A stretch of DNA of 63,996 bases, counting the filler, from Candidatus Hydrogenedentota bacterium (GTDB lineage Bacteria > JBFMHD01), in the NCBI GenBank assembly GCA_040752395.1. It is 12 parts of 12 records of this genome, joined end to end, with 100 filler letters (N's around TTAATTAATTAA, not from the genome) between each part and the next. Parts side by side here need not be neighbours in the genome. Positions count along the whole stretch, not along the records: positions 37,073 to 41,311 come from JBFMHD010000230.1; positions 41,412 to 45,591 come from JBFMHD010000231.1; positions 45,692 to 49,751 come from JBFMHD010000233.1; positions 49,852 to 53,900 come from JBFMHD010000234.1; positions 54,001 to 57,990 come from JBFMHD010000235.1; positions 58,091 to 62,067 come from JBFMHD010000236.1; positions 62,168 to 63,996 come from JBFMHD010000329.1; 5 more parts are not named here. One strand, given 5' to 3'. A program made the translations under genes and the position numbers. The notes beneath the pieces were generated by a model. It was not told the DNA's origin. It was given only the letters and a program-made list of their open reading frames with translations, and did not search any database. Positions 38,544 to 62,515 of this stretch are shown one piece after another. Positions within the stretch are counted from its first letter, which is position 1. The number at the start of each line of letters is the position of its first letter.

Positions 38544-38690
38544 CTCCTCTGAAAAACGCTGTAACTCTAATGACATCAAGTAGAAGCAAGAAGCAAGATA
38601 ACGGAAGAAGTGAGAGGTATCAGGACAGGCTACAGGCTACGGACTACAAGCCGGCTGGAGCAAAAAGCCCGGAGCCTGAAAGCTAATATA
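38544..38690 (-). repeat. Composite repeat, SD-ending copy
   Basis: Minus strand ends TTAGAGTTACAGCGTTTTTCAGAGGAG directly before the start codon. Confidence 0.9.
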
Positions 38691-38700
38691 TCATCAAAAG

Positions 38701-39810
38701 TTAAAGAACATCACATGCTGCCAAAACATCCTTGATAGCAAGGTTTTCAACGACTCTATATCTGCCAATGTCTTCAAGCAAAACTAATCTTAATTTCCCA
38801 TCAATATTTTTTTTATCTTTTAATATTATATTCTTAAATAAAATTTTGTTAAGTTTTAATTTTAGTTTTACAGGCAACCCCATTTTTTTTATCAATTGAT
38901 AAATCCTGTTAAAACAATCATCATTTATATAACCAAGGCTTTTTGACAAATTAGAGGCTGCGATGATGCCAATGGCAACAGCCTCACCGTGCGAGATTCC
39001 TTTAAAATCTGTAAGTGATTCAAAGACATGAGCAAAAGAATGTCCAAGATTAAGGCTAACCCGTAAATTTTTCTTATCAAATTCATCTCTACTTACTATA
39101 TCAGCCTTAAATACGCAGCATCTCTTAATAATATATTCAACAGCGGTTAAATCTTTATTCAAAATTTTATTAAAATTAATATCAAGGTATTTAAAAAAAG
39201 ATTTATCAAAGCATAGAGCATATTTAATAACTTCTGCGAGCCCGTTTCTATATTCATCCATCGAGAGCGTTTTAAGAAATTGAGTATCTATAAAAACAAG
39301 TCTCGGTTGATAAAACGTACCAACCATATTTTTATATTTTTCGTAATTAACACCTGTTTTACCACCAACACTACAATCAACACAAGCAAGCAGTGTTGTA
39401 GGGAAATAGAGTAAATTAATACCACGTTTGTAAGAGGATGCAACAAAGCCTGTAATATCACCTATTACGCCGCCACCAAAAGCTAATATTGTGTCAATCT
39501 GTTTATTGATATTAAAAATAAAATCAAGTATTTTCTTATAATTCTCAAAAGATTTATGTCTTTCACCACGTTTTAAAAGATAAGTATTGATATTAAAACA
39601 TTTACACAGAGACTTACGTAATTTATCGCCCCATAGGGTATTAACATAGCTATCAGATATTAAAACAGCATTCTTACCCAGTCCTTTGCATTCATTATGA
39701 AGTATTTCGTTATCAAGATGATTAATGATTCTGGTCAATCGATTAAGGATATTAGAGCCAATAAAGATTTTATAAGACCTTTCCCCTAAATTAACAGCTA
39801 TTTTTTTCAA
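38701..39810 (-). CDS. aroB: 3-dehydroquinate synthase
   Basis: GGGVIGDITGF, PTTLLA.VD.SVGGKTG, LNLGHSFAH, HGEAVAIG. Confidence 0.95.
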   Translation of the reverse strand: MKKIAVNLGERSYKIFIGSNILNRLTRIINHLDNEILHNECKGLGKNAVLISDSYVNTLWGDKLRKSLCKCFNINTYLLKRGERHKSFENYKKILDFIFNINKQIDTILAFGGGVIGDITGFVASSYKRGINLLYFPTTLLACVDCSVGGKTGVNYEKYKNMVGTFYQPRLVFIDTQFLKTLSMDEYRNGLAEVIKYALCFDKSFFKYLDINFNKILNKDLTAVEYIIKRCCVFKADIVSRDEFDKKNLRVSLNLGHSFAHVFESLTDFKGISHGEAVAIGIIAASNLSKSLGYINDDCFNRIYQLIKKMGLPVKLKLKLNKILFKNIILKDKKNIDGKLRLVLLEDIGRYRVVENLAIKDVLAACDVL

Positions 39811-40133
39811 GCTTGTTCTTCCACCACGGCGAGTATAAACTTCAGGTCATCAATCAACTCATTTTTATTATATTTAGAAGCTGATTCTTTATCTTCTTTT
39901 ATTTTTTTTCTTGCACCCTGAATTGTAAATTCTTCTTCATATAGAAGATATTTAATTTTGTTTATAAGGTCTATGTCTTTTTTTCTATAGACTCGCTGAC
40001 CACCTTTATCTTTCTCTGGTCGTAGTTGTTGAAATTCAGTTTCCCAGTATCTGAGAACATAGGGTTTAATGCCTGTAATGTTCGATACTTCGCCTATCGA
40101 ATAAAAGAGTTTTTCATTTTTAAGTTGTTCCAT
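39807..40133 (-). CDS. MerR-family regulator (ihfA-associated type)
   Basis: KLFYSIGEVS..YVLRYWETEF..LLYEEEFTIQGA. Confidence 0.9.
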   Translation of the reverse strand: MEQLKNEKLFYSIGEVSNITGIKPYVLRYWETEFQQLRPEKDKGGQRVYRKKDIDLINKIKYLLYEEEFTIQGARKKIKEDKESASKYNKNELIDDLKFILAVVEEQA

Positions 40134-40138
40134 AGTAG

Positions 40139-40470
40139 CTCCTCTGAAAAACGTTGTAACTCTAATGATATCAAGTAGAAGCAAGAAGCAAGATAACGAA
40201 AGAAGTGAGAGGTGTCAGGACAGGCTACTGGCTACGGACTACAGCCGGTTGGAGCCCGAAGCCAAAAGCCTGCTGAAAAGTCTTGAGTCTCGAGTCTTGA
40301 GTCTTGAGTCTTGTTTTGACTCACGACTCTCGACTCCCGACCCCTAATATACCCCATCCCCTATGACCCATCCCCTAATATCCTTTGTGCCTTTGTACCT
40401 CTGTGCCTTTCCCTCCTGTCTTCTAATTTTGAATTTTGAATCTTGAATCTTTGACTCTTTGAATCTTTCT
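40139..40470 (-). repeat. Composite repeat, long SD-ending copy
   Basis: Nearly colinear with 62201-62515, including the CCCCTAA/CCCCAT module. Confidence 0.92.
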
Positions 40471-40478
40471 TTAAGTAA

Positions 40479-40775
40479 CTATTTTTGTTCTTTTGGTGTA
40501 CTATTTATAAGTTCCTGTTTAAGTTGACGTCCAAGTTTAAATCTTACAAGATATCGTGGTTTCAACATCAGGCTTTTACCTGTTTTAGGGTTTCTACCTT
40601 TGCGTGCGTTCGTCTTTTTTATATAAAATTTACCAAAATTAACTATGCGTACAGGTTCCATCCTTAGCAGTGATTCTTGTATTACCTGAAAAAAGACTTC
40701 ACAAGCTTTTTTTGCGTCTTCGTATTTTAAACCTGTGGACTCTTCTACGCGTTTAATTAAATCAGCTTTTGTCAT
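40479..40775 (-). CDS. IHF/HU DNA-binding protein (probably IHF alpha)
   Basis: MTKADL, NFGKF, RKGRNPKTG; adjacent MerR-type gene. Confidence 0.88.
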   Translation of the reverse strand: MTKADLIKRVEESTGLKYEDAKKACEVFFQVIQESLLRMEPVRIVNFGKFYIKKTNARKGRNPKTGKSLMLKPRYLVRFKLGRQLKQELINSTPKEQK

Positions 40776-40784
40776 CAGATATTC

Positions 40785-40875
40785 CTCCTCTGAAAAACGT
40801 TGTAACTCTAATAATATCAAATAGAAGCAAGAGGCAAGAGGCAAGAGGCAAGATAAACAAACATCTGGTTTTTCA
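40785..40875 (-). repeat. Composite repeat, SD-ending copy filling the gpsA-IHF spacer
   Basis: Starts at the gpsA stop (TGAAAAACCAGATG) and ends TTTTTCAGAGGAG. Confidence 0.9.
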
Positions 40876-41311
40876 TCCAAACTCGCTTTTTAATTCTCTT
40901 TTCATAAGTGAATAAAGAGATTTTGATGGTGGAGCGTTTTCATATAAAACTTTATAAACTTCTTCAGTAATAGGCATACTTAAATTCAATTCTCTGGCTT
41001 TAAGATAAACGCCTTTTACACAATAATAACCCTCCGCGACCATTTTCATTGATTGTATAACTTCCCTCGGTTTTCTACCTTTACCTATCTCTTCACCAAG
41101 ATATCTGTTTCTTGAATATTTGCTTGTTGCTGTTACCACAAGGTCACCGAGTCCGGATAAACCAAAAAATGTTTCTTTTTTTCCACCCATTGCCACACCA
41201 AAACCAACGAGTTCTTTAAGTCCCCGTGTTATCAATGCTGCTTTAGAATTATCACCAAACCCAAGTCCATCAGAAATACCACAAGCTATAGCAAGTATAT
41301 TCTTAACACCA
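40873..41311 (-). CDS. gpsA: NAD(P)H-dependent glycerol-3-phosphate dehydrogenase, C-terminal part
   Basis: KNILAIACG, GLSGLGDLVVT, SRNR, VAEG, MPITE. Confidence 0.93.
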
Positions 41312-41411
41312 NNNNNNNNNNNNNNNNNNNNNNNNNNNNNNNNNNNNNNNNNNNNTTAATTAATTAANNNNNNNNNNNNNNNNNNNNNNNNNNNNNNNNN
41401 NNNNNNNNNNN

Positions 41412-42941
41412 AAATTTTTTTAAAATTTCTACAATACCCTTAATATCAAACATATCATAATTAATCGCTCTCTCATTATACCATTCTTTATCTTCCTTTA
41501 TACCACCTGCTGCTATACCTAATTTTGTAATCTCGTTTTCCTTATTAAAAACATTGCCTATCTCAAAAAATCCTGTTTGTTTTTGTTTAGCATTAACATT
41601 ATTATTCAAAACTCTCAGTAGGTTTATACTTAAATTATTTCTTAAAACTCTCTCATCAAAAGATAATGGGTTTGCAAGATAAACTAAATCAAAAGAAAAT
41701 AGTCTGGCAAAAGATTCGGATATAAAGCTTGAGGTTAATGATTCATTATATCCTGCTTTTAACATCAAATCTCTAATACCATCCCTGAAATTGTACCATC
41801 TATAAGGTTCGTTAAACCATCCACCATCCATCTTGCGACGTGGTATATATGGTAATGTATATTCAAGTTTATCATACCCATAAACCCTTAATATTTCCTC
41901 TATAATATCCATCTCTCCATCGATGTCGGGTCTAAAGGATGGCACTAATACTTCGAATTCATCGCGTAAAAGTGTTGTTACAAAGCCTAATCCATGAAGT
42001 ATTTTTATAATTTCTTTTTCTTGTATCTCTCTACCTACAATCCGGCATAAGGTAGCTTTATTTAATATAACTTTTTTTTCAATAATTTTATGAGGGAATA
42101 TATCATAGAGCGGTTCAATAATCTCTCCACCTCCTATCTCTTTTATCATCTCAGCGCACAATAGTATCGCATCAATAAGTCCCGCGATATCAACGCCTCG
42201 TTCAAATCTAAAAGAAGAATCACTTGCTACCTTATGTAGTTTTGTAGTTTTTCGTATAGACGAAGGTAAAAAGTACGCGCATTCAAGAAATACATTTTTA
42301 GTTTTAAAAGTGACTGATGTCTCCTCGCCTCCCATAACACCTGCTAAAGCTACGGGTTTATTTTTATCAGCTATTACTAATTCAGTCCCTTTTAGTTCTA
42401 ATTTTGTTCCGTCAAGCAGCAAGATATTCTCCTGTGGTTTAGCAGTTCTTACTATAATCTTCTCTCCCTCTATTAAATCCCAGTCAAATGCATGCATCGG
42501 ATGATTCATTTCAAGCATTATATAATTTGTTATATCTACTACATTATTTATAGGTCTTGAGCCTGCTTTTTCTAATCTTTTTTTCAACCATTCTGATGAT
42601 TCTTTAACCTCAACACCTCTGAGTAATAAACCATCATACCTTGGACAATCTTCTTTATTTTCTATAATTACCGAACCTGTATTTCTGATTAACGGTTTGT
42701 ATTTACTTTTTTTATACGAGAGCTTTTTATCAAAAAGTACTGCGAGTTCTCTTGCTATGCCTTTTATGCTTAAAGCATCCGGTCGATTTGGTGTTATATC
42801 AAGCTCCAGTATAATATCATCTTTAACCTGTTCGACCTTAGAGACTTCTATACCAGCCATTGTTAGTCTTTTACTTATCCCATCAACAGGTATATCTTTT
42901 AAGTCAATAAAATCGTTAAGCCATTCTAAAGGAATGCGCAT
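41412..42941 (-). CDS. pheT: Phenylalanine-tRNA ligase beta subunit (3' truncated; lacks the B2 OB domain)
   Basis: ITPNRPDALS, INNVVDITNY, HAFD, LAGVMGG, RFERGVD, PSFRPDI. Confidence 0.93.
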
Positions 42942-42946
42942 ATCTT

Positions 42947-43975
42947 TTAAAATGTAACCTTTTTAAACTGGTTTAAAAACTCCAGATGGTTTTCATAAAA
43001 TAGTCGTATATCATCGATTCTATATTTAAGCATTGTGACTCGTTCTACACCGAGTCCAAAAGCAAAGCCGTTGTAAATCCTGTTATCATAGCCTACATTT
43101 TTTATTACCGCTGGATGAACCATCCCTGCGCCAAGTATCTCAATCCATCCTGTCTGTTTACACATACCACAACCTTTATTCCCGCAGAAAATGCAAGAGA
43201 TATCAACCTCAACACTCGGTTCTGTGAACGGGAAAAAACTTGGTCTGAACCTGATCTGTACCTTTTCTTCAAATATATCTCGTGCAAAATATAAAAGCAT
43301 ACCCTTTAAATCAGGCATAGATACGTCTTTATCAACAAACAATCCTTCAACCTGATGAAATATGGGGTAATGTGTAGCATCAGGTTTGTCAGACCTGAAA
43401 ACTCTACCAGGTACAACCACACAGATAGGTGGTTTATAAGATTCCATAATTCTTATCTGTACAGGCGAGGTATGGGTTCGAAGTAATCTACCGTCTTGTA
43501 GGAAGAACGTTGCCTGCATATCACGTGCAGGATGCCACACTGGAAAATTTAATGCAGTAAAATTATAATAATCTGTCTCTATCTCAGGTCCTTCAGCTAT
43601 ATGAAAGCCGAGTCTTTTAAATGAGGCAAGAATCTCTTTCATCGTTATAGAGATCGGGTGGCTATATCCTATATCATATTTTCGTTCAGAAAGTGTTATA
43701 TCAACTTTTGATACTTTTAATTCCTTTTTTTCTATCTCTAATCTTTTTTTATTAAATATCTCTTCTATCTCTTTTTTTAAGATATTACACAATCTACCAG
43801 CCTCGGGTCTTTCATTTAAGGGTAGCTCAGGGATACTTTTCAGCAATTCGCTGACTTTACCCTTTCTACCCAAAAACTGATAATATAGTCTTTGAAATTC
43901 AGTTTTAGATTTAGTTTTATCAAGTTCAGATAAGACCGAATCTTTTAATTTTTTAATCTCCTGTTTTATCAGCAT
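42947..43975 (-). CDS. pheS: Phenylalanine-tRNA ligase alpha subunit
   Basis: HPARDMQATF, LRTHTSPVQ, FHQVEG, FPFTEPS, GFAFGLGVER. Confidence 0.97.
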   Translation of the reverse strand: MLIKQEIKKLKDSVLSELDKTKSKTEFQRLYYQFLGRKGKVSELLKSIPELPLNERPEAGRLCNILKKEIEEIFNKKRLEIEKKELKVSKVDITLSERKYDIGYSHPISITMKEILASFKRLGFHIAEGPEIETDYYNFTALNFPVWHPARDMQATFFLQDGRLLRTHTSPVQIRIMESYKPPICVVVPGRVFRSDKPDATHYPIFHQVEGLFVDKDVSMPDLKGMLLYFARDIFEEKVQIRFRPSFFPFTEPSVEVDISCIFCGNKGCGMCKQTGWIEILGAGMVHPAVIKNVGYDNRIYNGFAFGLGVERVTMLKYRIDDIRLFYENHLEFLNQFKKVTF

Positions 43976-44324
43976 TTATTTTATCCTTTGCTATCTCTAC
44001 AAGTCTTTTAAATGCCTCCTTATCAGAGATAGCCATCTCAGATAGCATCTGTCTATCAATCTGCACGCCTGCGAGTTTTAGCCCATACATAAATTTTGAA
44101 TAAATAATATCATTTTCTCTACACTCAGCATTGATTCTTATAATCCATAGTCGTCTGAAATCTCGTTTTCTTCTACGTCTATCACGCCATGCGTAACGTA
44201 GCGCCCTTCGCATAGCTTCTCTTGCTGTTTTATACAGCTTACTTTTACCTGCATAAAACCCTTTAACCTGCTGAAACAACTTTTTACGTTTCCTTTTAGA
44301 AGGTGACCCTTTTACTCTAACCAT
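43953..44324 (-). CDS. rplT: 50S ribosomal protein L20
   Basis: RDRRRRKRDFRRLWIIRINA. Confidence 0.97.
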   Translation of the reverse strand: MVRVKGSPSKRKRKKLFQQVKGFYAGKSKLYKTAREAMRRALRYAWRDRRRRKRDFRRLWIIRINAECRENDIIYSKFMYGLKLAGVQIDRQMLSEMAISDKEAFKRLVEIAKDKINADKTGD

Positions 44325-44363
44325 TGTCGTACTCCTTTCGAGAAAGAAGCAAGAAGGCGGAAA

Positions 44364-44561
44364 TTATACTCCGGGTAAAACCATTTTTACTCTTTTGTAA
44401 TCACTCTTACTAATAATACCCGAGCGTCTCAAATTTCTTTTTCTATTTTTACTTTTTGATGTCAGTAAATGACTTTTATAAGCTTTACATCTTTTAATTT
44501 TTCCTTTAGCTGTTATTTTAAACCTTTTTTTAGCACCGCTGTGGCTCTTCATTTTTGGCAT
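44364..44561 (-). CDS. rpmI: 50S ribosomal protein L35
   Basis: [21 protein letters not shown]. Confidence 0.97.
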
Positions 44562-44575
44562 CAGTGTAAAACCTC

Positions 44576-44790
44576 CTCCTCTGAAAAACGCTGTAACTCT
44601 AATAATATCAAATAGAAGCAAGAAGCAAGATAACGGAAGAAGTGAGAGGTGTCAGGACGGGGTACAGGCTACGGGCTACGGACTACAGCCGGCTGGAGCC
44701 CCCTATGAAAAGTCTTGAGTCTTGAGTCTTGAGTCCTGAGTCCTGTTTTGACTCACGACTTGCGACTCACGACTCACGACTCTTTGACTC
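44576..44790 (-). repeat. Composite repeat, SD-ending copy between infC and rpmI
   Basis: Near-identical to 45369-45591. Confidence 0.92.
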
Positions 44791-44801
44791 TATAGACCGA
44801 T

Positions 44802-45359
44802 TCAGTGGTTAATGGGTGTAACCGTGGGTTTTGATTCTCTGTGTTTTGCGCTTCTTGGTTTTGGCATCAAAACCATTATCATCTTCCTTCCTTCCATATC
44901 AGGCTTTTTTTCAACATCAGCGATATCCTTTAACTCATCTTTTATTCTTTCAAGTATCGCTCTGCCGAACTCAAGATGCGTGACCTCACGACCTCTAAAG
45001 TTTACAGTTACTTTAACTTTATCTCCCCGACCGATAAAATTTATAATATGTCTTTTCTTGAATTCGTAATCATGTTTTTCTATAGTGGGGCTGAATGTCA
45101 TCTCTTTTATCTTAACAAAGGTTTGTTTCTTTTTGCTTTCTTTTTCCTTTTTTGTCTGTTGATACTTGTATTTCCCAAAATCCATTAATTTACAGACCGG
45201 GGGTTTAGCGGATGGCGCTACTTCAACAACATCTACACCCAGTTCTTCAGCCTTTTCTAAAGCTTCTTTTATTGAGACAACACCTATCTGTGTCCCATCA
45301 TCACCTATTAGTCTTACCTCCTTATCTCTAATCTGTTCATTTATCCTTACTTTTAATAT
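44802..45359 (-). CDS. infC: Translation initiation factor IF-3 (probable non-canonical ATA start)
   Basis: RINEQI, VRLIG, PPVCKLMDFGKYKY, KVKVTV.FRGRE; no in-frame ATG after the RBS. Confidence 0.95.
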   Translation of the reverse strand: MLKVRINEQIRDKEVRLIGDDGTQIGVVSIKEALEKAEELGVDVVEVAPSAKPPVCKLMDFGKYKYQQTKKEKESKKKQTFVKIKEMTFSPTIEKHDYEFKKRHIINFIGRGDKVKVTVNFRGREVTHLEFGRAILERIKDELKDIADVEKKPDMEGRKMIMVLMPKPRSAKHRESKPTVTPINH

Positions 45360-45368
45360 AAACACCAC

Positions 45369-45591
45369 CTCCTCTGAAAAACGCTGTAACTCTAATAATA
45401 TCAAATAGAGGCAAGAAGCAAGAAGCAAGAAGCAAGATAACGGAAGAAGTGAGAGGTGTCAGGACGGGGTACAGGCTACGGGCTACGGACTACAGCCGGC
45501 TGGAGCCCCCTATGAAAAGTCTTGAGTCTTGAGTCTTGAGTCTCGAGTCCTGTTTTGACTCACGACTTGCGACTCTTTTCATATCATCTTT
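45369..45591 (-). repeat. Composite repeat, SD-ending copy upstream of infC
   Basis: Same module order as 44576-44790; runs into the contig end. Confidence 0.92.
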
Positions 45592-45691
45592 NNNNNNNNN
45601 NNNNNNNNNNNNNNNNNNNNNNNNNNNNNNNNNNNTTAATTAATTAANNNNNNNNNNNNNNNNNNNNNNNNNNNNNNNNNNNNNNNNNNNN

Positions 45692-45836
45692 CTTTCTTTC
45701 CGTTATCTTGCCTCTTGCTTCTTGCCTCTAATTATGGCGTAAATATATCCTGCGGAAGATGGATACCATTTTCAGCAGGATATATTTACGCCATAATTAG
45801 AGGCAAGAAGCAAGAGGCAAGATAACGGAAAGAAAG
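45692..45836. repeat. Perfect 62-bp inverted repeat at contig start
   Basis: 45692-45753 is the exact reverse complement of 45775-45836. Confidence 0.9.
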
Positions 45837-45903
45837 ATAACGAAAGAGGCAAGAGGCAAGAGGCAAGATAAAGAAACCTCACCAAAAACAGGGTGGAATA
45901 GCT

Positions 45904-46914: not shown

Positions 46915-46932
46915 TATTAGGGTTAAAAGATT

Positions 46933-49375: not shown

Positions 49376-49468
49376 CTCCTCTGAAAAACATTGTAACTCT
49401 AATAATTCGGGCTACGGGCTACAGGCTACGGACTACAGCCGGCTGGAGACAAAAGCCTGTAGCCTGCA
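49376..49468 (-). repeat. Composite repeat, short SD-ending copy
   Basis: SD module joined directly to the GGCTAC module; AAGCAAG module absent. Confidence 0.88.
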
Positions 49469-49698
49469 GTTTTTTATCTTTTACAAATATTGGTTAAATT
49501 TGGCAAGAAAAATTTTAAAGAATTTTATATCCCATTAGTCTTTAAGAGTAGAAAAATTTATCAGCGAGTCTTGACGGCTTTACAAAAAACAGTGTAGATT
49601 TTATTCGATTGTGGTGCTGCGGTTAGAGTGCCAATGGATGAGATAATAAAGAATTATCAAAACAAGAATAATGTAAAAAATTAATGTTATTTATTCAG

Positions 49699-49751: not shown

Positions 49752-49852
49752 NNNNNNNNNNNNNNNNNNNNNNNNNNNNNNNNNNNNNNNNNNNNTTAAT
49801 TAATTAANNNNNNNNNNNNNNNNNNNNNNNNNNNNNNNNNNNNNNNNNNNNT

Positions 49853-50146: not shown

Positions 50147-50152
50147 ATTAAT

Positions 50153-53900: not shown

Positions 53901-54000
53901 NNNNNNNNNNNNNNNNNNNNNNNNNNNNNNNNNNNNNNNNNNNNTTAATTAATTAANNNNNNNNNNNNNNNNNNNNNNNNNNNNNNNNNNNNNNNNNNNN

Positions 54001-54232
54001 GAAGAAGTGAGAGGTATCAGGACAGGCTACAGGCTACAGCCGGCTGGAGCCCGAAGCCCGGAGCCTGCTGAAAAGTCTTGAGTCTTGAGTCTCGAGTCCT
54101 GTTTTGACTCACGACTTGCGACTCACGACTCTTTTCATATTATCTTCAGTTTTTCATACGTTGTGTAGAGCGCAAAAACGCAATAACCCAATAACCCAAT
54201 TATCTTGCCTCTTTCGTTATCTTGTCTTTATC
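54001..54232. repeat. Composite repeat copy (contig start)
   Basis: GGCTAC, GAGTCTT/GACTCAC, TGTAGAGCGC/AACCCAA modules, reversed GATAAC module. Confidence 0.9.
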
Positions 54233-54233
54233 T

Positions 54234-56162
54234 TTACAAAGCCAACGGCAATATAATTGTAAAAGTAGAGCCTTCTCCTTTTTTACTTTTTACTTCTATC
54301 CTCCCATTGTGAAGTTCAACAAGTTTTTTTGTAATAGAAAGCCCGAGACCCGAACTTTCTATATCAGTATATAAACCTGTCTCTATCCTTGTAAAACTCT
54401 CGAAGATTTTATCTCTATCATTTTCAGCTATGCCTATTCCTGTATCACTGACTGATATATGTACAGAATTATCTTTTATATAACAATCAACCCCAACATT
54501 GCCAGCGGGTCTGTTATATTTTATAGCATTTGAGACAAGATTTGTCAAGACCTGAACTATTCTATCTTCATCACCGTTGATAAAGATATTTGAGGAAGTA
54601 TACTTTTTTATTAAAGAAACCTTTTTTTCAGCCGCGAGAGCCTCGTAGGTTAATAAAACTTTATCAATTATTTTTATAATGTCTAATTTTCTTACTCTGA
54701 GTTCAAGTTTATTAACCTCTATTCGCTGGAGATCCAGAAGAGTCGTGATAATTCTTGTCAATCTATCAGTCTCCTGTTTGATAATAGATAAGAAATTGTT
54801 AAATATCCCCCTATTATAATCATTTAAGAGTGAGATAAGTGTCTCGGTATAAGATTTAATGCTTGTTAAGGGTCCTCTCATCTCATGGCTTACTGTTTGA
54901 ATAAATTCAGTCTTTGCTCTATTTATTGATTCTAATTTAGAAACAGTATTTTGTAATTCTTTGTTTAAGAATTCAATAGCTGTATTATGGTCGCGTAATT
55001 CTATATATAAAATAAGATTTGCAATCCCCAGAGATAAAGTACCTGCAATAGTAATAAAACTCTTAATTTCATCTTCTTTGAAATCTGTATTTTTTTTTAA
55101 GAATAAAACCGAGTTTAGTTTCTGATTATAATATATAGGTATATAGATGTCCGGTCTTGAAACCTGTAATAATGAATTATCCGGTACAACTTTTCTATCA
55201 ATAAAATCTGAGATCTCAGCACCTGTACTGTATTTTTTTTTAAATCCTTTTAATTTATCGTCAAGGCCATAAAATCCAATTGAAACTAATTTATAAAATG
55301 AATTTAATTTATTGGTTATCTTTTCATAAAATTCATCAAAAGATCTTACCTCAAGCATAATTTTCGATAAATCATAAAGAACCCTGAATTCTTCCAGCTT
55401 AACTTCTAACTCCCTCTGTATAAGTTCAGTCTTTATATAAAAATTTGCAAGTTCATCAGCTAATGCTGCCTGGTCTGTAACATCAAAAAACATACAGCCT
55501 ACACTATCATTATCAATCTTAAATAAATAAATATCAAATATAGAATCAGCTATTTTACAACCACTATATCGAAAAGATTTATCTTTGAATGCTATGTTCA
55601 ACCAGTCACTTATTATTATGGGATTGTCTGTTAAAAAAGAGCTTAAAGATATTGAAAATTTTTTATTATACTTTATAATATTACCTCTTTTATCAAAAAA
55701 GAGACCCGCAACTGGTAGGTTCTCAAAAAAATCGCCAAAAATCCTTTCTTTAAGAATATTATAATGTTTCCAGTTAAGATAATCATATAAAATCTTATCG
55801 TGATCAAAACAGAGTTTTAAACCTGATGCTTTTTCAGGCTCTATTAATATAATCTTTTTCGCATCATCATCTGCAAGAGGTTCTCCTCTTCCTTTTGCTA
55901 TATATACTGTACTTATTGTATGAAATCTTTTGTCTCTATCTGGTTCTGAATATACGCCTAGTAATCTTAAATCAGTTATATCAAGTGATGTCTCTTCTTT
56001 GGCTTCACGTATAGCAGCAGATTCGGCTGACTCACCATAATCAATAAACCCACCGGGTAAAGCATAACCATAGGGTTCGTTTCTTCTTTCTATTAATATT
56101 ATCTTATTATCCATTTCTATTATTATATCAACAGTTGGATAAGGATTCTTGTAATCTCGCAT
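54234..56162 (-). CDS. Nudix hydrolase fused to a sensor histidine kinase (PAS-like, GAF-like, HisKA, HATPase)
   Basis: Nudix box GGFIDYGESAESAAIREAKEET; SHEMRGPLT, NLVSNAIKY, DTGIGI, GLGL, GEGSTF in one ORF. Confidence 0.85.
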   Translation of the reverse strand: MRDYKNPYPTVDIIIEMDNKIILIERRNEPYGYALPGGFIDYGESAESAAIREAKEETSLDITDLRLLGVYSEPDRDKRFHTISTVYIAKGRGEPLADDDAKKIILIEPEKASGLKLCFDHDKILYDYLNWKHYNILKERIFGDFFENLPVAGLFFDKRGNIIKYNKKFSISLSSFLTDNPIIISDWLNIAFKDKSFRYSGCKIADSIFDIYLFKIDNDSVGCMFFDVTDQAALADELANFYIKTELIQRELEVKLEEFRVLYDLSKIMLEVRSFDEFYEKITNKLNSFYKLVSIGFYGLDDKLKGFKKKYSTGAEISDFIDRKVVPDNSLLQVSRPDIYIPIYYNQKLNSVLFLKKNTDFKEDEIKSFITIAGTLSLGIANLILYIELRDHNTAIEFLNKELQNTVSKLESINRAKTEFIQTVSHEMRGPLTSIKSYTETLISLLNDYNRGIFNNFLSIIKQETDRLTRIITTLLDLQRIEVNKLELRVRKLDIIKIIDKVLLTYEALAAEKKVSLIKKYTSSNIFINGDEDRIVQVLTNLVSNAIKYNRPAGNVGVDCYIKDNSVHISVSDTGIGIAENDRDKIFESFTRIETGLYTDIESSGLGLSITKKLVELHNGRIEVKSKKGEGSTFTIILPLAL

Positions 56163-56212
56163 AAGATACCCCTTTGTTGCTTCGCTTTATTGTAAATTCT
56201 GTGCCAATTCGC

Positions 56213-57073
56213 TCATAGGGTTCTTATTAAATTTACTATTCTATCGAGGTCATCATCTGAATAAAAGTCTATCTCAATGCTACCTTTATTTTTCCCTCTT
56301 ATAATCCGAACACCGGTACCAAAGATTTTCATTATCTCTTCTTCAAGAGAGAGTATATTGGGGTCTTTAGTCTTTGAGAGTTCAATTTTGTCTTTATCTT
56401 TTTTTCTTCTCTTTTCTTTTGGATATACTATGTCTTCTAAACTTCGGACCGATAATTGATTATTAATTATATTATTTGCTATTTCTATAATTTTAGCATG
56501 GTCTTCAATAGCAAGCAATGAACGTGCATGACCTTTTGTGATTCTACCTTCTTTTATGTATGCCTTTACCTCCTCTGGTAAATTAAGTAATCTTATAGTA
56601 TTAGTAATATGCGACCTACTTTTACTTATTATCTTTGAGATTTCATCATGGGTTCTATTAAATTCATTGGTAAGACGTTCATAAGCAAAGGCTTCATCAA
56701 TAGGGTTTAAATCCTCTCTTTGAATATTTTCAATTATAGATATTTCAAGCATTTTTTCATCATTTATATCAAGTATTTTACAGGGAACCTCTTTAATTCC
56801 TGCTATAGAAGCTGCTCTTAATCTTCTCTCGCCAGCTACAAGTTCAAAGGTATCACCTTGTTTTCTAACAATTAATGGTTGTAATAGGCCATTTACTTTA
56901 ATAGAATCAGCCAATTCTTTTAACTCTTCTTCATTAAAGATTTTTCTTGGTTGATAGGGGTTAGGTAAAACATTTCCAATCGAGACAGTAACAATGTCTT
57001 CTTTTGGACTATCTTTATCTTTAAACTCACCTAATAGAGTTTGAATACCTCTACCAAAACCCTTATTAATCAT
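56213..57073 (-). CDS. parB: Chromosome partitioning protein ParB/Spo0J
   Basis: PNPYQPRK.F, GLLQP, AGERRLRA, ENIQREDL. Confidence 0.96.
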   Translation of the reverse strand: MINKGFGRGIQTLLGEFKDKDSPKEDIVTVSIGNVLPNPYQPRKIFNEEELKELADSIKVNGLLQPLIVRKQGDTFELVAGERRLRAASIAGIKEVPCKILDINDEKMLEISIIENIQREDLNPIDEAFAYERLTNEFNRTHDEISKIISKSRSHITNTIRLLNLPEEVKAYIKEGRITKGHARSLLAIEDHAKIIEIANNIINNQLSVRSLEDIVYPKEKRRKKDKDKIELSKTKDPNILSLEEEIMKIFGTGVRIIRGKNKGSIEIDFYSDDDLDRIVNLIRTL

Positions 57074-57827
57074 AATCGATCACTTCCTTTATAAAATTTT
57101 TAAAAGCCTGACTGGCTTTTGACTTAGGATTCAACTCCCAGACAGTTATGCCCATGGAAGATGCTTTAGCGATGTTATAATCTCTTGGAATAATACTTTT
57201 AAATATTTTATTATTAAATTTAGCTTTTAACTTATTATAAACTTCAGTATAGTAATCGATATTTTCATCGAGCATACTTACCAAAACCCCCATCACATTA
57301 AGGCCAGTATTACTGTTCTCTTTTATAATAGAATATATATTACCCAGTTGAGAGAGGCCATCTATGGTATAATATTCACAGAGTGCTGGTATTATCAGAT
57401 AATTAGATGCATTAAGGGAGTTAATTGTCAACATACCGAGCGATGGAGGGCAATCAATAATAATATAATTATATACACTATCAATGTCCTCTAATATCTT
57501 CTTTAATAATTTATCTTTATCTTCTTTTTCAAATGATTCTATTTCAAATGCTGATAAATGGATATTTGATGGGATTATATCCAGGTTATTTTTCCTTGTA
57601 AAATATATAGATGATTTAATATTACTAATTTCTAATAGTGCTTCATAGATTGTGGGAGACAAATATTCTTTTTTAAGACCCAAACCTATAGTTGAGTTAC
57701 CCTGTGGATCCATATCTATTAATAATACCTTTTTATTATTTTCAGATAAACCATAAGCTAAATGAATAGCTGTTGTTGTCTTTCCTACACCGCCTTTTTG
57801 ATTGGCAATACAGATATTTTTTGACAT
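57066..57827 (-). CDS. parA: Chromosome partitioning ATPase ParA/Soj
   Basis: NQKGGVGKTT, IDMDPQGN, IDCPPSLG. Confidence 0.95.
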   Translation of the reverse strand: MSKNICIANQKGGVGKTTTAIHLAYGLSENNKKVLLIDMDPQGNSTIGLGLKKEYLSPTIYEALLEISNIKSSIYFTRKNNLDIIPSNIHLSAFEIESFEKEDKDKLLKKILEDIDSVYNYIIIDCPPSLGMLTINSLNASNYLIIPALCEYYTIDGLSQLGNIYSIIKENSNTGLNVMGVLVSMLDENIDYYTEVYNKLKAKFNNKIFKSIIPRDYNIAKASSMGITVWELNPKSKASQAFKNFIKEVIDYD

Positions 57828-57833
57828 ATTCAA

Positions 57834-57862
57834 ATATTACGTAAACTATAAATTTTTGTCAA
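57834..57862 (-). promoter_or_regulatory. Sigma70-type promoter of parAB
   Basis: Minus strand TTGACA-17 nt-TAATAT. Confidence 0.6.
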
Positions 57863-57885
57863 GAAAAAAAATAAAAAAATTTGTA

Positions 57886-57901
57886 TGTTTCACGTGAAAC
57901 A
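57886..57901. promoter_or_regulatory. parS centromere site
   Basis: Perfect consensus palindrome TGTTTCACGTGAAACA just upstream of parA. Confidence 0.95.
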
Positions 57902-57905
57902 TTAC

Positions 57906-57989
57906 CTAATACATCTTTTTTAAATATTTGATCTTTCTTGGATATCTTTTATCTGTCTTATATCTTTTTTTTATTATAAATATATAACC
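57906..57989 (-). CDS. rsmG: Probable 3' end of 16S rRNA methyltransferase RsmG/GidB
   Basis: IIKK...TDKRYPRK C-terminal motif and position upstream of parAB. Confidence 0.5.
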   Translation of the reverse strand, partial: GYIFIIKKRYKTDKRYPRKIKYLKKMY

Positions 57990-58090
57990 TNNNNNNNNNN
58001 NNNNNNNNNNNNNNNNNNNNNNNNNNNNNNNNNNTTAATTAATTAANNNNNNNNNNNNNNNNNNNNNNNNNNNNNNNNNNNNNNNNNNNN

Positions 58091-58876
58091 GTCTTACATC
58101 TTGTGCATATTTATTTGAATACGCTACTCAATAGAGAAAGATGTGAAATAAGGGAATCATTTATCCCGCCAAATTGGAATCAATGCATAAAAGATAATCA
58201 AGGTTGGGATGAATACTGGGCTAATAAAAACAAATCAGCCTTGTTAATATACGATTTGATTGCCGCATTCTATAGGAAATATATTATTAAAAAATCGCTA
58301 AACTATTTTATTATGAAATATTTTATTAAGGATGCAAAAATTCTGCATGCAGGTTGTGGAAGTGGACAGGTAGATATTGACATAATAGGGAAATATTCAA
58401 TAACTGCATTAGATATATCGACCGAAGCTTTGGCAATATATAGAAAAGTAACTAAAGGCCATTGTAATCTTTTGCATGGTTCCATATTTGCAATCCCTGA
58501 GCCTAATGCAACTTTTGATGGCATATATAATCTTGGCGTAATGGAACATTTTACTGAAGGCGAGATAAATAACATATTAAATGAATTTAATCGCGTGCTA
58601 AAACCAAATGGCAAAATAATATTATTTTGGCCTCCAGAATTTGGCATAAGCGTCGTATTTTTAAAGTTTATCCGACACTTCATGAATGTCCTATTTAAAG
58701 AAAATATAAAACTACATCCAGATGAAATAACAAAAATTAAGTCAAAAAGACAAGTTAAACATTTATTATTAAAAGCAGGATTCTCATTGATTGAATATTA
58801 TTTTGGCCCAAAAGATTTATTCACACATGTTGTTGTTGGCGAAAAATTAAATAAGGATGGTTGCATTGAAAAATAA
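58091..58876 (+). CDS. Class I SAM-dependent methyltransferase (probably 5' truncated)
   Basis: ILHAGCGSG, ALDIS, FDGIYNLGVMEHF, RVLKPNG. Confidence 0.85.
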   Translation, partial: VLHLVHIYLNTLLNRERCEIRESFIPPNWNQCIKDNQGWDEYWANKNKSALLIYDLIAAFYRKYIIKKSLNYFIMKYFIKDAKILHAGCGSGQVDIDIIGKYSITALDISTEALAIYRKVTKGHCNLLHGSIFAIPEPNATFDGIYNLGVMEHFTEGEINNILNEFNRVLKPNGKIILFWPPEFGISVVFLKFIRHFMNVLFKENIKLHPDEITKIKSKRQVKHLLLKAGFSLIEYYFGPKDLFTHVVVGEKLNKDGCIEK

Positions 58877-59331
58877 TATAGAGTTTATTGAAGTATATTG
58901 TCCCATTTGCTCATCTTGTGATTATAACGTTCTATACTTAGATACTCTTGGCCATGATTTTCCTTGTTTTGGTTATGATTTTAGTCCGGAACATAATAGG
59001 ACATACCGGATTGTTAAATGTAATAAGTGCGGTCATGCATATAGTTCGCCAAGACCTAAATACATATATCAAAACTACCAAGATGTTGAAGATAAGGTCA
59101 TTAGATAAATTATTTAATGACAATGGGTATCAAAGATTATATATGGGCAAATATCCCTATGTAATGACATTTAGATCAATTGCAAAATCCTTAGCCAGAT
59201 ATCCTCTAATTGGGAGAATTGCGAAAAAAGCATTTAATATCCCTTATCTGACAAGTAAAAAAATTACTATTTCGCTGCCTGGTGAAATGTTCGCTATTTA
59301 TAAAAAAGTTGGGAATATAAATGAACTATAA
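58857..59331 (+). pseudogene. Zn-ribbon methyltransferase remnant, central part deleted
   Basis: N-terminal CPIC...IVKCNKCGHAYSSPRP followed out of frame by C-terminal SLDKLF...GEMFAIYKK; no SAM-binding core. Confidence 0.6.
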
Positions 59332-59383
59332 AACAGATAAATAGGAGAAAAATGGCGGAATAGTATTTTTGCTTTGAAAAAAG

Positions 59384-61234
59384 ATGTCTAATATTGTAGA
59401 AAAAATGAGAAATAATATCGGCCGATTTGAGGAATGGCTTGAGCATAATTACTGGTATAGCCTGGTTGTAATATTCTTGTTTTATTTATTTTTTCATTTG
59501 CATGGTGTTATATATTTAAGTGGTTATATGTGTTCTATTTTCCCCCTTAATGCGTTGTATATATCCAAAACATTGTTATTTAAAGACAATGTCTTAAATC
59601 CGGCATTGTCATCGGTTTATATTTCTCCTTCCAATGGGCTTTTTATCTACCCTCCAGGGATTTATCTTTTAACAAAATATTTAGGAAATGTAAGGAATAT
59701 ATTTTTATTTCTATTCCTCTTTCAAATATTTGTGCCATTTTTGATTTTTAAGCTCTGCCGTAAAATGGCATCTGTTTTTGTTTCAACGGTTGCTTCTTTA
59801 ATATCTATTTCCTACTTTGCAATTACAGGTTGGTGGGCTCCTGATTTTATTATTCAGCCGATAATGTTGCTTGTCATATTGATACTATGGCCAATTGTGG
59901 AAGGTAAAGATAAAGGATCAATTGTAAGATATATATCCGCTGGATTATTAACCGGATTGATTATGATATTAAAGCATAATATAGCTATATTTTTTACTTC
60001 GCTTTGTTTGACAATCATATTTATTAATGCTATTGTTAAGGCAAAAGATAAGGCTCAAAATTATAGAAGGTATATATTATATATTGCATTAATAGCGTAT
60101 GCCTGCTATGGCTTTGTCTTTGGCATGAAACTGTTATATTTCGATGAGATTATATTTTATTTAATTCCTTATTCTATTTATGTGTCAGCATTATTTTATT
60201 GGATCAAAAAAGATGGGTCTCTAGAGATTGATTTGCCAGTATTTATAATGAATATATTGATATATATATCGTCATTATTGATTATTCCAGGCATTATCTT
60301 TTTATGGATTGGGAGCGTAGTCGGATATTCACGATATTTGTATTCGCTTTTTGGAATGGGTCTAAAATATTTGCATATTTGGAATGAGGGAATTGTTGGT
60401 ATATTAAATACATATTTTAGGCTTCAAGAGCCTTTTTCTTTCAAAACCATTGCAAGGATTGTAAAATATACTTCGTTGTTTTGTGGCCCATTTATAATAT
60501 CTTGCTATGCGGCAATAAAATTATTCAAATACAGGCAAATAGAGATTAAGGCTAAAAAATGGTTTATTATAGTCTCAATCGCTGTTATGGGAATGTTTAT
60601 GTTCTTTCCTTTAGAAGGGTATCATATATTAATGACTAAATGGTTTATTTTTCTCTTCTTACTATTATTTCTTATTAAGGAGATGTCGCTTGAAAATAGC
60701 ATATTTTATAAGATAATATTGATATTAGTCATCCCTATTACTTTATATCCATTACGCTTTATTAAGCCAGCGAAGGTCTTAATTGGCATCCCAGAAATAC
60801 ATAATGTCATCGGTTTCCCGATAGATAATGATCTGGAAAAGGCATTGAATGATCAGATAATGGTTATTAAAAGGAGCATAAAAGGTGGCTCATATTATGT
60901 AATTGATTCTTCTGGTGCTAGCTTAACACCGCTCCTAGCATTGATAGATAATCATTATCCCCAATATTTCATTGAAATGAGGAAAGGAATTATGGAAAAA
61001 AAATCCGTTGATGCTATAATTTTTGATCTTAAAAAGGTTCAATATGCTTTGGTTAATGCAGAAGACTATAGAAAATATTTAAATAAAACTTCTAAAGATC
61101 CATATATGGTAAAAATACTCAATTATCTTAATAAAAAATATAAAGTTATAGATCAATACAAGGCACCTGATGTACCACTTCCATCTACTTACCAGATATT
61201 GAGTTTTTTGATTTTTGAAAAAAGAAAGGAGTGA
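59384..61234 (+). CDS. Polytopic membrane protein (GT-C-like)
   Basis: Many TM segments, YPPG motif, soluble C-terminal domain. Confidence 0.6.
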   Translation: MSNIVEKMRNNIGRFEEWLEHNYWYSLVVIFLFYLFFHLHGVIYLSGYMCSIFPLNALYISKTLLFKDNVLNPALSSVYISPSNGLFIYPPGIYLLTKYLGNVRNIFLFLFLFQIFVPFLIFKLCRKMASVFVSTVASLISISYFAITGWWAPDFIIQPIMLLVILILWPIVEGKDKGSIVRYISAGLLTGLIMILKHNIAIFFTSLCLTIIFINAIVKAKDKAQNYRRYILYIALIAYACYGFVFGMKLLYFDEIIFYLIPYSIYVSALFYWIKKDGSLEIDLPVFIMNILIYISSLLIIPGIIFLWIGSVVGYSRYLYSLFGMGLKYLHIWNEGIVGILNTYFRLQEPFSFKTIARIVKYTSLFCGPFIISCYAAIKLFKYRQIEIKAKKWFIIVSIAVMGMFMFFPLEGYHILMTKWFIFLFLLLFLIKEMSLENSIFYKIILILVIPITLYPLRFIKPAKVLIGIPEIHNVIGFPIDNDLEKALNDQIMVIKRSIKGGSYYVIDSSGASLTPLLALIDNHYPQYFIEMRKGIMEKKSVDAIIFDLKKVQYALVNAEDYRKYLNKTSKDPYMVKILNYLNKKYKVIDQYKAPDVPLPSTYQILSFLIFEKRKE

Positions 61235-61413
61235 AAGCAATATCAATTACTACGACATCTTTTGGAGAAAAATGGCTGAATGCTTTGAAAGAAAAGGGCT
61301 ATCAGATTATCACAAACTTCTATGGAAGAAAACTTGAAAAAGATGAGATTTTGGAAATCTGCAAGGATTCTGTTGGTATTATCGCAGGAACGGAAAAAAT
61401 TATCAAAATTTGA
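61231..61413 (+). pseudogene. Truncated phosphoglycerate-dehydrogenase-like gene
   Basis: ITTTSFG..N.YGRKL..E.....GIIAGTE, then a premature stop. Confidence 0.6.
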
Positions 61414-61457
61414 ATTTGTCTTCTAATCTACTTAAAAAACTTGAATAAACTAAGCTA

Positions 61458-61486
61458 TTGACAAAATATTTATTCCAAAGTATAAT
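61458..61486 (+). promoter_or_regulatory. Consensus sigma70 promoter
   Basis: TTGACA-17 nt-TATAAT. Confidence 0.75.
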
Positions 61487-61568
61487 AAAAATGAATGGAA
61501 AATAAATCTAGGATTGAAATGGAAAGACAAGCAATGGAAAATCTACTTAAAGGTTTGGAGGTAGAATT

Positions 61569-62067
61569 ATGAAAGTAGTCGTTTTTGGAGGAGCTGGTTT
61601 TTTAGGCAGTCATGTAGCTGATGTTTTAACTGAACAGGGTCATCAGGTTATAATCTTTGACTTGGTTAAATCACCTTATGTTAAAAATGGCCAAGATTCA
61701 GTGATCGGAGACATTACTGATATGGATAAGGTTCATCAAGTGGTTAATGGATGTGATTTAGTCTATAATTTTGCTGGAATAGCTGACCTTAATGAGGCAA
61801 AGAAAGACCCAGTGGCGACAGTAAGAAATAATATCCTAGGCACAACGATAATTCTTGATGAATGCAGAAAGAATAAGGTAAAGAGAGTAATCTTTGCCAG
61901 CACCCTTTATGTTTATAGCAAAGCCGGTTCGTTTTATAGAAGCAGTAAGCAGGCTTGCGAACTACTGATTGAGAATTATCATGAAATTTATGGCCTTGAT
62001 TTTACCATTCTGCGTTATGGCTCTCTCTATGGCCCTAGGGCTAATGAGAGCAACTGGATTTACAATA
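61569..62067 (+). CDS. NAD-dependent epimerase/dehydratase (3' truncated)
   Basis: GGAGFLGSH, YRSSK, LRYGSLYGP. Confidence 0.9.
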
Positions 62068-62167
62068 NNNNNNNNNNNNNNNNNNNNNNNNNNNNNNNNN
62101 NNNNNNNNNNNTTAATTAATTAANNNNNNNNNNNNNNNNNNNNNNNNNNNNNNNNNNNNNNNNNNNN

Positions 62168-62195
62168 CAGCTGCCCCAGTAATAACTGCTCGCAT
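62168..62195 (-). CDS. Start of a Rossmann-fold protein (truncated by gap)
   Basis: MRAVITGAA after an AGGAG RBS. Confidence 0.5.
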
Positions 62196-62200
62196 ATAAT

Positions 62201-62515
62201 CTCCTCTGAAAAACATTCTAACTCTAATAATATCAAGTAGAAGCAAGAGGCAAGAAGCAAGAAGCAAGATAACGGAAGAAGTGAGAGGTATCACGACGGG
62301 GTACAGGCTACAGGCTACGGACTACAGCCGGCTGAAGCCAAAAGCCAAAAGCCTGCTGAAAAGTCTTGAGTCTTGAGTCTCGAGTCCTGTTTTGACTCAC
62401 GACTCTCGACTCCCGACCCCTAACCCCTAACCGCCGCCCCCTAATATACCCCATCCCCTATGACCCATCCCCTAATATCCTTTGTGCCTTCTCCTCCTGT
62501 CTTCTGTCTTCTAAT
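62201..62515 (-). repeat. Composite repeat, long SD-ending copy
   Basis: SD, AAGCAAG, GGCTAC, GAGTCTT/GACTC and CCCCTAA modules. Confidence 0.92.

Follow-up and report, generated by a model that had tools for sequence, protein, structure and literature searches.

The Shine-Dalgarno sites of 7 genes without a common function were found to be contained in a single repeated sequence module in a stretch of about 64 kb on 12 contigs from Candidatus Hydrogenedentota bacterium (assembly GCA_040752395.1), which we refer to as the window. The module, here called H, is 27 to 31 nt long, (ATTA)TTAGAGTTACARYGTTTTTCAGAGGAG, and represents the gene-proximal end of a modular, hairpin-rich family of intergenic repeats. 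It was the sole Shine-Dalgarno site of each of the 7 genes, at a distance of 5 to 14 nt from the start codon. We suggest, with a probability of roughly 0.6, that it belongs to a copied cassette, consisting of a leader and a ribosome site, which has spread by recombination among intergenic repeats. All counts given below refer to the window unless otherwise stated.

Module H at the starts of seven genes

The degenerate 27-mer TTAGAGTTASARYGTTTTTCAGAGGAG had 7 exact matches, all on the minus strand (at 38544, 40139, 40785, 44576, 45369, 49376, and 62201), whereas no match was obtained in any of 100 dinucleotide-preserving shuffles (expectation 0.00). The same 7 sites only were recovered when up to 7 substitutions in 27 positions were allowed on both strands, with no decayed, reversed, or gene-less copy of H. 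In an alignment of the 7 loci, the sequences were fully identical from TTAGAGTTA to GGAG with the exception of 3 adjacent positions (C/G, G/A, and C/T), such that 24 of the 27 positions were invariant, and the similarity ended directly after GGAG, where the next base was G, C, or A. The offset from TTTTTCAGA to GGAG was zero in all 7 copies as well as in a single copy from another assembly (L001, see below), and a run of 5 U was located 3 nt before AGGAG. The start codons followed the final G of GGAG at distances of 7, 5, 9, 14, 9, 8, and 5 nt in the order of the coordinates. The original prediction, which was made from the sequence of the window, had reported 7 copies at these positions, a similarity that stops at the GGAG core shortly before the starts, and a conserved end that serves as the Shine-Dalgarno site; the searches, the alignment, and our reading of the sequence agree with it on all these points, and confirmed that the finding is real and non-random.

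Each copy of H was located in a leader or an intercistronic spacer and was co-oriented with the gene downstream (7/7). The common orientation noted previously is correct in this sense, whereas the use of the same strand across contigs is an artefact of their concatenation. Searches against Pfam confirmed the identities of the genes downstream of 6 copies and placed their products in different families with no common function, namely DUF6485, MerR, Bac_DNA_binding (HU/IHF), L35, IF3, and Ysc84/SYLF, whereas the description of the seventh as a Rossmann-fold gene was a guess, with only 11 codons present before the contig break. The claim that the element occurs inside essential operons was borne out by the copies in the infC-rpmI-rplT-pheST cluster. 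The rpmI copy lies within this cluster and the canonical infC-rpmI-rplT-pheS-pheT order was kept across it, which argues that the assembly is correct across at least one copy.

Organization of the repeat mosaic

The full copies (before rpmI, infC, merR, and the gene at 62201) begin, in the direction of the gene, with optional G-rich and octamer arrays, which are followed by a long imperfect hairpin that consists of (GAGTCNN)n, a loop, (GACTCNN)n, and then TTTTCA. Next comes module D, a GC-rich palindrome around CAGCCGGCTG with arms of GGCTNNN/GTAGCCN heptamers, after which follow module E, CCTGAYACCTCTCACTTCTTYCGTTATCTTG, module F, with 2 to 4 CTTGCYT heptamers, and module G, CTAYTTGATRTYA, while H closes the mosaic. 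The distal extent differed among the copies, from about 75 to 345 nt, and modules were skipped in the copy at 49376 and in L001. What had been described as a single dispersed repeat is instead the terminal module of a mosaic. The 7 copies with H are the following:

38544..38700, minus strand, copy before the gene for a Cys-rich DUF6485 protein, with modules D (the GGCT-heptamer palindrome), E, F, G, and H; it fills the aroB-DUF6485 spacer, and GGAG ends 7 nt before ATG 38536.
40139..40478, minus strand, longest copy, before merR, with octamer and GGGGAT-type arrays, the GAGTCNN/GACTCNN hairpin, and D, E, F, G, and H; it occupies the entire 345-nt ihf-merR spacer, and GGAG ends 5 nt before ATG 40133.
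40785..40875, minus strand, short copy before the HU/IHF gene, with F, G, and H only, after a module that starts with ATGAAAAACCAGATG and carries the TGA stop of gpsA; GGAG ends 9 nt before ATG 40775.
44576..44785, minus strand, full copy in the infC-rpmI spacer, with the hairpin, D, E, F, G, and H; ATG 44561 of rpmI (L35) comes after GGAGGAGG, 14 nt past the first GGAG.
45369..45591, minus strand, full copy before infC, with the distal end cut by the contig end; GGAG ends 9 nt before the in-frame ATA 45359.
49376..49470, minus strand, minimal copy before the Ysc84/SYLF gene, with the D palindrome joined straight to H, and E, F, and G absent; GGAG ends 8 nt before ATG 49367, and the DNA upstream is unique and AT-rich.
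62201..62490, minus strand, full copy before a truncated open reading frame (ORF; MRAVITGAA...), which is cut by the contig end at 62168 after 11 codons; GGAG ends 5 nt before ATG 62195.

We infer that infC starts at the in-frame ATA 45359; genes for IF3 often have unusual start codons. Modules of the family were also identified at 4 other sites:

13519..13560, plus strand, leader of a pilin gene, with the ATGAAAAACCAGATG module and a (CTTGCTT)n array, then TTTTCATAGGAGG; the start codon is ATG 13561.
4492..4640, minus strand, element cut by the contig end and lacking its gene-proximal part; what is present comprises the hairpin, the internal connector TTTTCAGAGGGG, and the beginning of D.
54001..54135, minus strand, element cut by the contig end within module E; the stretch where H is expected is missing.
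9131..9240, plus strand, copy of the hairpin and D, in the same orientation as the gene at 9306; about 65 nt of another leader, with its own AAGGAGG, come next.

The purine-rich end is a connector of the repeat family, one version of which serves as a ribosome site. Its 12-nt core, TTTTCAKAGGRG, was present 12 times, as compared to 0.09 expected occurrences. The 8 AGGAG versions correspond to the 7 copies of H and the pilin leader (13542), all located 5 to 14 nt before start codons, while the 4 AGGGG versions were all internal joints, directly before module D. This internal usage argues that the purine-rich end belongs to the repeat and is not just the native site of each gene. The sequence TTTTCATAGGAGG in the pilin leader is the same connector core without the first half of H, located after the (CTTGCTT)n array and 6 nt before ATG 13561, and the earlier suggestion that this leader represents an eighth case was confirmed.

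The mean pairwise identity was 95.1% for H (7 copies), 95.5% for E (5 copies), 95.0% for the hairpin loop (7 copies), and 90.0% for the core of D (10 matches, some of which represent the palindrome read on both strands). Longer segments were also nearly identical: the infC and rpmI copies (family D3, 44614-44768 versus 45421-45575) shared 99% identity over 155 nt although they were located 793 nt apart, and the copies of family D2 (38544-38648 versus 40139-40243) shared 95% identity over 105 nt. Furthermore, the letters at the variable positions were common to copies of H on the same contig. Since H was no better conserved than the other modules and neighbors shared the same variants, the pattern argues for copying or gene conversion rather than for selection acting site by site, and these comparisons of sequence point to copies that may be recent or homogenized, especially between neighbors.

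The same data bear on the possibility that H is a selected cis-regulatory leader, a site for one RNA-binding protein, small RNA, or specialized ribosome through which growth-related genes are co-regulated. Such a role would be consistent with the 24 invariant positions and with the presence of an identical module before a small ORF in another assembly (L001), and a comparable role has been proposed for heptamer repeats in the Beggiatoaceae (PMC4679880). However, H was conserved no better than the modules upstream, which cannot all be operators, the genes downstream lacked a common function, the shared variants of neighbors and the long flanking identity argue for copying, and searches against Rfam gave no match at the gathering thresholds and only 2 weak matches to an unrelated miRNA family. 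We consider an operator of a regulon unlikely.

It was also noted that the segment at 45692-45850 is a long foldback, in which a perfect inverted repeat with arms of 23 nt (45731-45753 and 45775-45797) and a loop of 21 nt is bordered on both sides by inverted modules of the E/F type. This foldback resembles a miniature inverted-repeat transposable element (MITE), does not contain H, and is located upstream of a T2SS-F-like gene. Another segment, at 10800-10864, lies in the 5' region of the long ORF at 10670-13363, which encodes a CBM48/CBM20/fn3 protein, and carries CTTGCYT arrays together with a CGTTAT-type module; either the true start of this gene is located further downstream or the repeat is tolerated in the coding sequence.

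Predicted translation, folding, and transcription signals

To describe the ribosome sites, the 25 nt that precede each of 48 gene starts were scored for the energy of a duplex with a 9-nt motif of the 16S rRNA tail; the start coordinate of infC was off in this scoring, but its ribosome site was still within the scored stretch. Genes with H accounted for 5 of the 6 strongest ribosome sites and for 7 of the 16 sites at or below -8 kcal/mol as measured against this motif, while 24 of the 48 starts were weaker than -5 kcal/mol. Set against the half of the starts that were weak, H gives unusually strong predicted ribosome sites.

The structured leader suggested previously is consistent with the folding predictions, in which 2 full leaders were estimated to fold better than shuffled sequences (z = -2.65 and -3.14). 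AGGAG was predicted to be paired in 5 of the 7 full-length leaders, with CCTCTC in module E or CCTCTT in module F, and to be open in the merR and Ysc84 leaders. A consensus scan identified CTGACA-17-TATCTT (9/12) in 3 of the 7 copies. Inspection by eye revealed a TGnTAT(T/C)AT stretch in module G, resembling an extended -10 element, about 26 nt before GGAG in 5 of the 7 copies; this stretch was not present in the Ysc84 copy or in L001. In appearance, the large hairpin with TTTTCA after it is similar to a terminator. No matches to Rfam were obtained at the curated (gathering) thresholds across the whole window, and a relaxed search of 44540-44810 (E<=1) returned 2 matches only, both to the unrelated miRNA family and with about 20 bits versus a threshold of 100.

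Two candidates for a coding role were rejected. One was a coupled mini-ORF, ATGAAAAACCAG..., which runs to a stop codon within or close to the ribosome site and was present in only 2 leaders (IHF and pilin). The other was an N-terminal extension, in that H was open in frame in 4 of the 7 copies; here, the frames differed, and the N-termini of L35, IHF, and MerR were standard. The shared module ATGAAAAACCAGATGTTTGTTTATCTTGC (40858-40880 and 13498-13530), which includes the TGA stop of gpsA, opens a mini-ORF of 15 to 19 codons in the IHF and pilin leaders, with a stop in or near the region of the ribosome site, and this may be due to chance. Mechanical ORF calling extended 4 genes into the repeat from TTG codons in CTTGCTT arrays:

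39807-40184, over-extended ORF call for merR.
40479-40880, over-extended ORF call for ihf.
44364-44621, over-extended ORF call for rpmI.
44802-45428, over-extended ORF call for infC.

These upstream TTG codons are a likely source of mis-annotated start sites in this genome.

Assembly of the window

The window contained 22 runs of exactly 44 N, arranged in 11 pairs, each of which enclosed a 12-nt linker with stop codons in all frames. The pieces between these joints were 4.0 to 4.4 kb and of descending size, with the exception of a 19.2-kb piece and the last piece, which was cut. We infer that the window is a draft assembly in which contigs have been concatenated, such that the order of genes across the joints has no meaning. 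The joints, each consisting of 44 N, the 12-nt linker, and 44 N, are:

4392-4491, joint.
8863-8962, joint.
13308-13407, joint.
17698-17797, joint.
36973-37072, joint.
41312-41411, joint.
45592-45691, joint.
49752-49851, joint.
53901-54000, joint.
57991-58090, joint.
62068-62167, joint.

The 7 copies of H were spread over 4 contigs, and at least 4 contig ends (4492, 45591, 54001, and 62168) fell within the repeat, which evidently breaks the assembly; copies are probably under-counted. The high fragmentation, with contigs of about 4 kb, and the contig ends inside repeats are also what would be expected if collapsed or chimeric joins had set one repeat copy before several genes. Such an artefact is very unlikely, however, since the copies differed in heptamer counts, point variants, and modules, 5 copies were located well inside contigs with unique sequence on both sides, and the junction between H and the gene spans only about 40 nt. 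The canonical gene order across the rpmI copy and the presence of the same D and H modules before an ORF in an independent assembly (L001) also argue against it.

The 19-kb contig (17798-36972) contained a different heptamer family, with GTCCACN/GTGGACN hairpins, and no modules of the H family. Its arrays end with GGACTAAT..AAC..., a short distance upstream of the GGAG-type sites of exbD, a gene for a periplasmic binding protein, and a gene for a 23S-IVS protein. The logic is the same but the heptamer is different, and this contig may therefore derive from another organism in the bin. Examples of the arrays are:

23130-23240, GTCCACN/GTGGACN hairpin.
24332-24399, GTCCACN/GTGGACN hairpin.
25759-25795, GTCCACN/GTGGACN hairpin.
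26205-26240, GTCCACN/GTGGACN hairpin.
33230-33351, GTCCACN/GTGGACN hairpin.
34587-34618, GTCCACN/GTGGACN hairpin.

In addition, 2 gene pairs, at 2308-3061 and 18403-19163, in which a gene for a nucleotidyltransferase is paired with a HEPN or a substrate-binding protein gene, resembled toxin-antitoxin systems.

Copies and analogues in other genomes

A scan of contigs in a genome collection identified at least one true copy among the matches listed, on contig C128 of MAG210 (here G001). In this copy, L001, modules D and H were located 9 nt before a 24-codon ORF that overlapped with the start of the next gene. The remainder of G001 contained no modules of the type in the window, and its IF3 protein was 50% identical to the protein in the window, as compared to 55% for the best of the 31 genomes searched. 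Contig C128 may be mis-binned in G001, and G001 was left out as a comparator for empty sites. No empty allele, target duplication, or close relative was found among the collection genomes and metagenome matches searched. The insertion or gene conversion through Shine-Dalgarno microhomology that was suggested previously is a candidate mechanism only. In 40 further genomes around G001, 2 matches with 1 mismatch were obtained, neither of which had the module context, and in the metagenomes, 9 loci matched the module without GGAG, none of which (0/9) had the upstream modules or AGGAG thereafter; both sets of matches were attributed to chance. There were no matches in the viral contigs.

Genome G001 has heptamer hairpins of its own, (TTACCAR)n/(YTGGTAA)n, with 134 matches versus 8 for a reversed control. 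Of the 30 loci listed (L055-L084), we inspected 11, and the remaining 19 overlap with the same contigs. Of 29 array ends, 9 stopped 3 to 11 nt before a GGAGG-type site and a start codon (ORFs of at least 40 codons), corresponding to 9 of 12 hairpin elements. It was typically the short arm of the hairpin that ended at this distance from a native GGAGG. Two fragmentary matches to Y1 transposases were also observed in this genome, a Y1-transposase-like gene that was apparently split by a frameshift (G001:C146:1-900; Pfam Y1_Tnp, 20.9 bits) and a second fragment at the end of contig C132 (28.5 bits), neither of which was flanked by heptamer arrays.

The spacer between infC and rpmI, which was measurable in 21 of 30 loci (one of the 21 was mis-called), ranged from 7 to 442 nt, and several spacers carried genome-specific heptamer hairpins just before the native ribosome site (e.g. 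G001:C156). Hairpins beside ribosome sites seem to be a habit of the wider group. The arrays in G001 end at a variable distance of 3 to 11 nt from native sites, in contrast to the zero offset of H in the window, and what is special here is the fixed, unique terminal module that is fused to the ribosome site.

Comparison with known repeat systems

Putative mobile promoters have been defined by an identity of 80% or more across 50 nt or more between positions -150 and -50 upstream of non-homologous genes (Nijveen, Matus-Garcia and van Passel 2012, PMC3575422). The families D2 (95% over 105 nt) and D3 (99% over 155 nt) exceed these values, with downstream proteins in different Pfam families, and are similar to mobile promoters in that nearly identical DNA precedes non-homologous genes of one genome. 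However, the definition of mobile promoters omits the last 50 nt and the ribosome site, whereas in the window the identity extends through the Shine-Dalgarno core, in a unit composed as a mosaic of heptamer hairpins.

The TAACTGA heptamers are intergenic direct repeats in the Beggiatoaceae, some Cyanobacteria, and Bacteroidetes, which are described as located in forward orientation directly upstream of the starts of unrelated genes, including ribosomal protein operons, with a mobility mechanism that is not known and a proposed role in translation (MacGregor 2015, PMC4679880). The H family is similar in position and polarity to these repeats as they are described there. The TAACTGA repeats are, however, purely tandem according to the same text and overlap or replace the ribosome site, with a Shine-Dalgarno site in about 10% of such spacers (PMC4679880), whereas the arrays in the window are located further upstream and the gene-proximal piece of 27 to 31 nt is not a tandem repeat but a unique module with the canonical AGGAGG. 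TAACTGA itself was not enriched in the window (11 occurrences).

Mycobacterial interspersed repetitive units (MIRUs) have been summarized as small, gene-oriented repeats in operons, located at start codons, that preserve the expression of the downstream gene, and are said to contain an internal ORF coupled to this gene by a -4-nt overlap of stop and start codons (PMC12548453). The H family likewise spares the expression of the downstream gene. Using an internal ORF stop with such an overlap and tandem units of 40 to 100 nt as the hallmarks, we found no common frame through H into the start codon; the frames differed among copies, there was no consistent coupled ORF, and H ends 5 to 14 nt upstream and works through the Shine-Dalgarno site, in contrast to the MIRUs as described in that text.

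BOX elements are mosaics of short modules. REP/BIME elements are found mostly downstream of genes or between convergent ones, alternate in orientation, and are not known to supply ribosome sites. The H family, in contrast, is co-oriented before genes and supplies the ribosome site, and no RAYT was found among the 54 ORFs of the window. The likeness to REP/BIME and GTAG-tagged palindromes (PMC3733652, PMC2817692) lies in the mosaic of short modules and palindromes in intergenic DNA and in the GTAG-bearing arms of D. As compared to an imperfect palindrome of 20 to 40 nt with a GTAG tag at one end, the CAGCCGGCTG core of D is flanked by GTAG-bearing heptamers, such that the tag is repeated and present on both sides of the palindrome. 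MITEs of the Correia or Nezha type carry inverted repeats at either terminus and duplicate their target site; here, the ends of the copies with H were unrelated, the distal end varied, and no duplicated flank was seen by eye.

The main alternative is that the family is of the REP/RAYT or IS200/IS605 (PATE) type, namely a non-autonomous single-strand hairpin element that would insert in one orientation right next to CTCC, the tetranucleotide complementary to the ribosome site, and would thus abut the native GGAG of each gene. The junction at GGAG was exact and of the same polarity in 8 of 8 copies (the 7 copies and L001), the base after GGAG varied as in native sites, and no terminal inverted repeats or target duplications were seen in the copies with H. 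The absence of these features fits the REP/RAYT and IS200/IS605 class of transposons. The repeat is also rich in hairpins, and D is a GC-rich palindrome with GTAG repeats in its arms, and GTAG-tagged palindromes constitute a super-family of REPs (PMC3733652). Furthermore, genome G001 contains the 2 fragmentary Y1_Tnp matches. These fragments belong to a distant genome and do not adjoin repeats, however, and none of the 54 ORFs scanned in the window had a transposase, integrase, or Y1 domain, in line with the earlier remark that no transposase is linked to the element. In addition, 5 of the 7 copies lacked a hairpin within about 60 nt of the GGAG junction, where E, F, and G intervene, the distal end was not fixed, and the TTTTCAKAGG connector was also used internally before GGGG, where there is no gene, which argues that the purines belong to the repeat. 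We regard this origin as possible but doubtful.

Limited word-based searches of the literature found no description of module H or of a mosaic repeat that carries a Shine-Dalgarno site. Judging from these comparisons, the H family would be a variation on known intergenic mosaic repeats and mobile promoters, with a terminal module for the ribosome site that is apparently undescribed.

Origin and biological meaning

Several features argue for a cassette that has been copied by recombination, namely a junction with zero offset, a connector that is also used internally, a mosaic in which modules are skipped, an equal divergence of all modules, and variants common to neighbors. Under this reading, the cassette would spread by copy-and-paste through recombination or template switching between intergenic repeats, in which the abundant upstream modules would serve as the region of homology and GGAG in the ribosome site would form the opposite junction, and copies would persist because the gene is left with a working ribosome site. 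The U-run and AGGAGG of H would constitute a strong ribosome-binding leader, and the TGATATTAT-type stretch just upstream in 5 of the 7 copies may be an extended -10 promoter, which would give a 5' untranslated region of some 30 nt. The hairpins with heptamer arms and a subsequent TTTTCA may be partial terminators or structures that stabilize the mRNA, and the pyrimidine modules (CCTCTC and CTTGCCT) could pair with the ribosome site in read-through RNA. Both the mobility and the function of the family are putative.

Several points weigh against this reading. The copying is deduced from similarity only, as neither a presence/absence polymorphism nor a target duplication nor a donor copy was seen, and the data cover about 64 kb on 12 contigs only, in which repeats break contigs and copies distant from starts could be under-assembled. 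The 16S-tail motif used for the energies of the ribosome sites was not taken from the host genome, and the copies are nearly identical, so that covariation cannot test the predicted pairing of the ribosome site. Promoter-like sites were not enriched in a scan with the sigma-70 consensus (38 versus 42.7 in shuffles), and the hairpin is followed by a run of only 4 U, and the main hairpin was not called in a terminator scan.

A more far-reaching idea, which we put forward as a speculation of low probability, is that the family is a self-propagating, non-coding gene-start cassette with the ribosome-binding site itself as its target. Whether through transposition of a single-strand hairpin next to CTCC or through template switching at the replication fork with resolution at GGAG, it would overwrite or capture translation-initiation regions, including those of the essential genes infC and rpmI. 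Its spread would be tolerated since every copy leaves a strong ribosome site behind, perhaps together with a promoter and a terminator.

Repeat mosaics and mobile promoters are known in kind, and the interest of the present family lies in that it reaches the ribosome site of essential genes. It adds a case that makes use of the Shine-Dalgarno site to the little-described heptamer-hairpin repeats at gene junctions. The leaders of the IF3-L35-L20 cluster in model bacteria carry gene-specific autoregulatory structures. If H truly provides signals for translation, and possibly for transcription as well, one repeat family would have standardized the expression signals of unrelated housekeeping genes, including those of this cluster. 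If true, this would represent a natural counterpart of the synthetic "insulated RBS cassette" (RBS, ribosome-binding site) and a low-cost route for repeats into essential operons.

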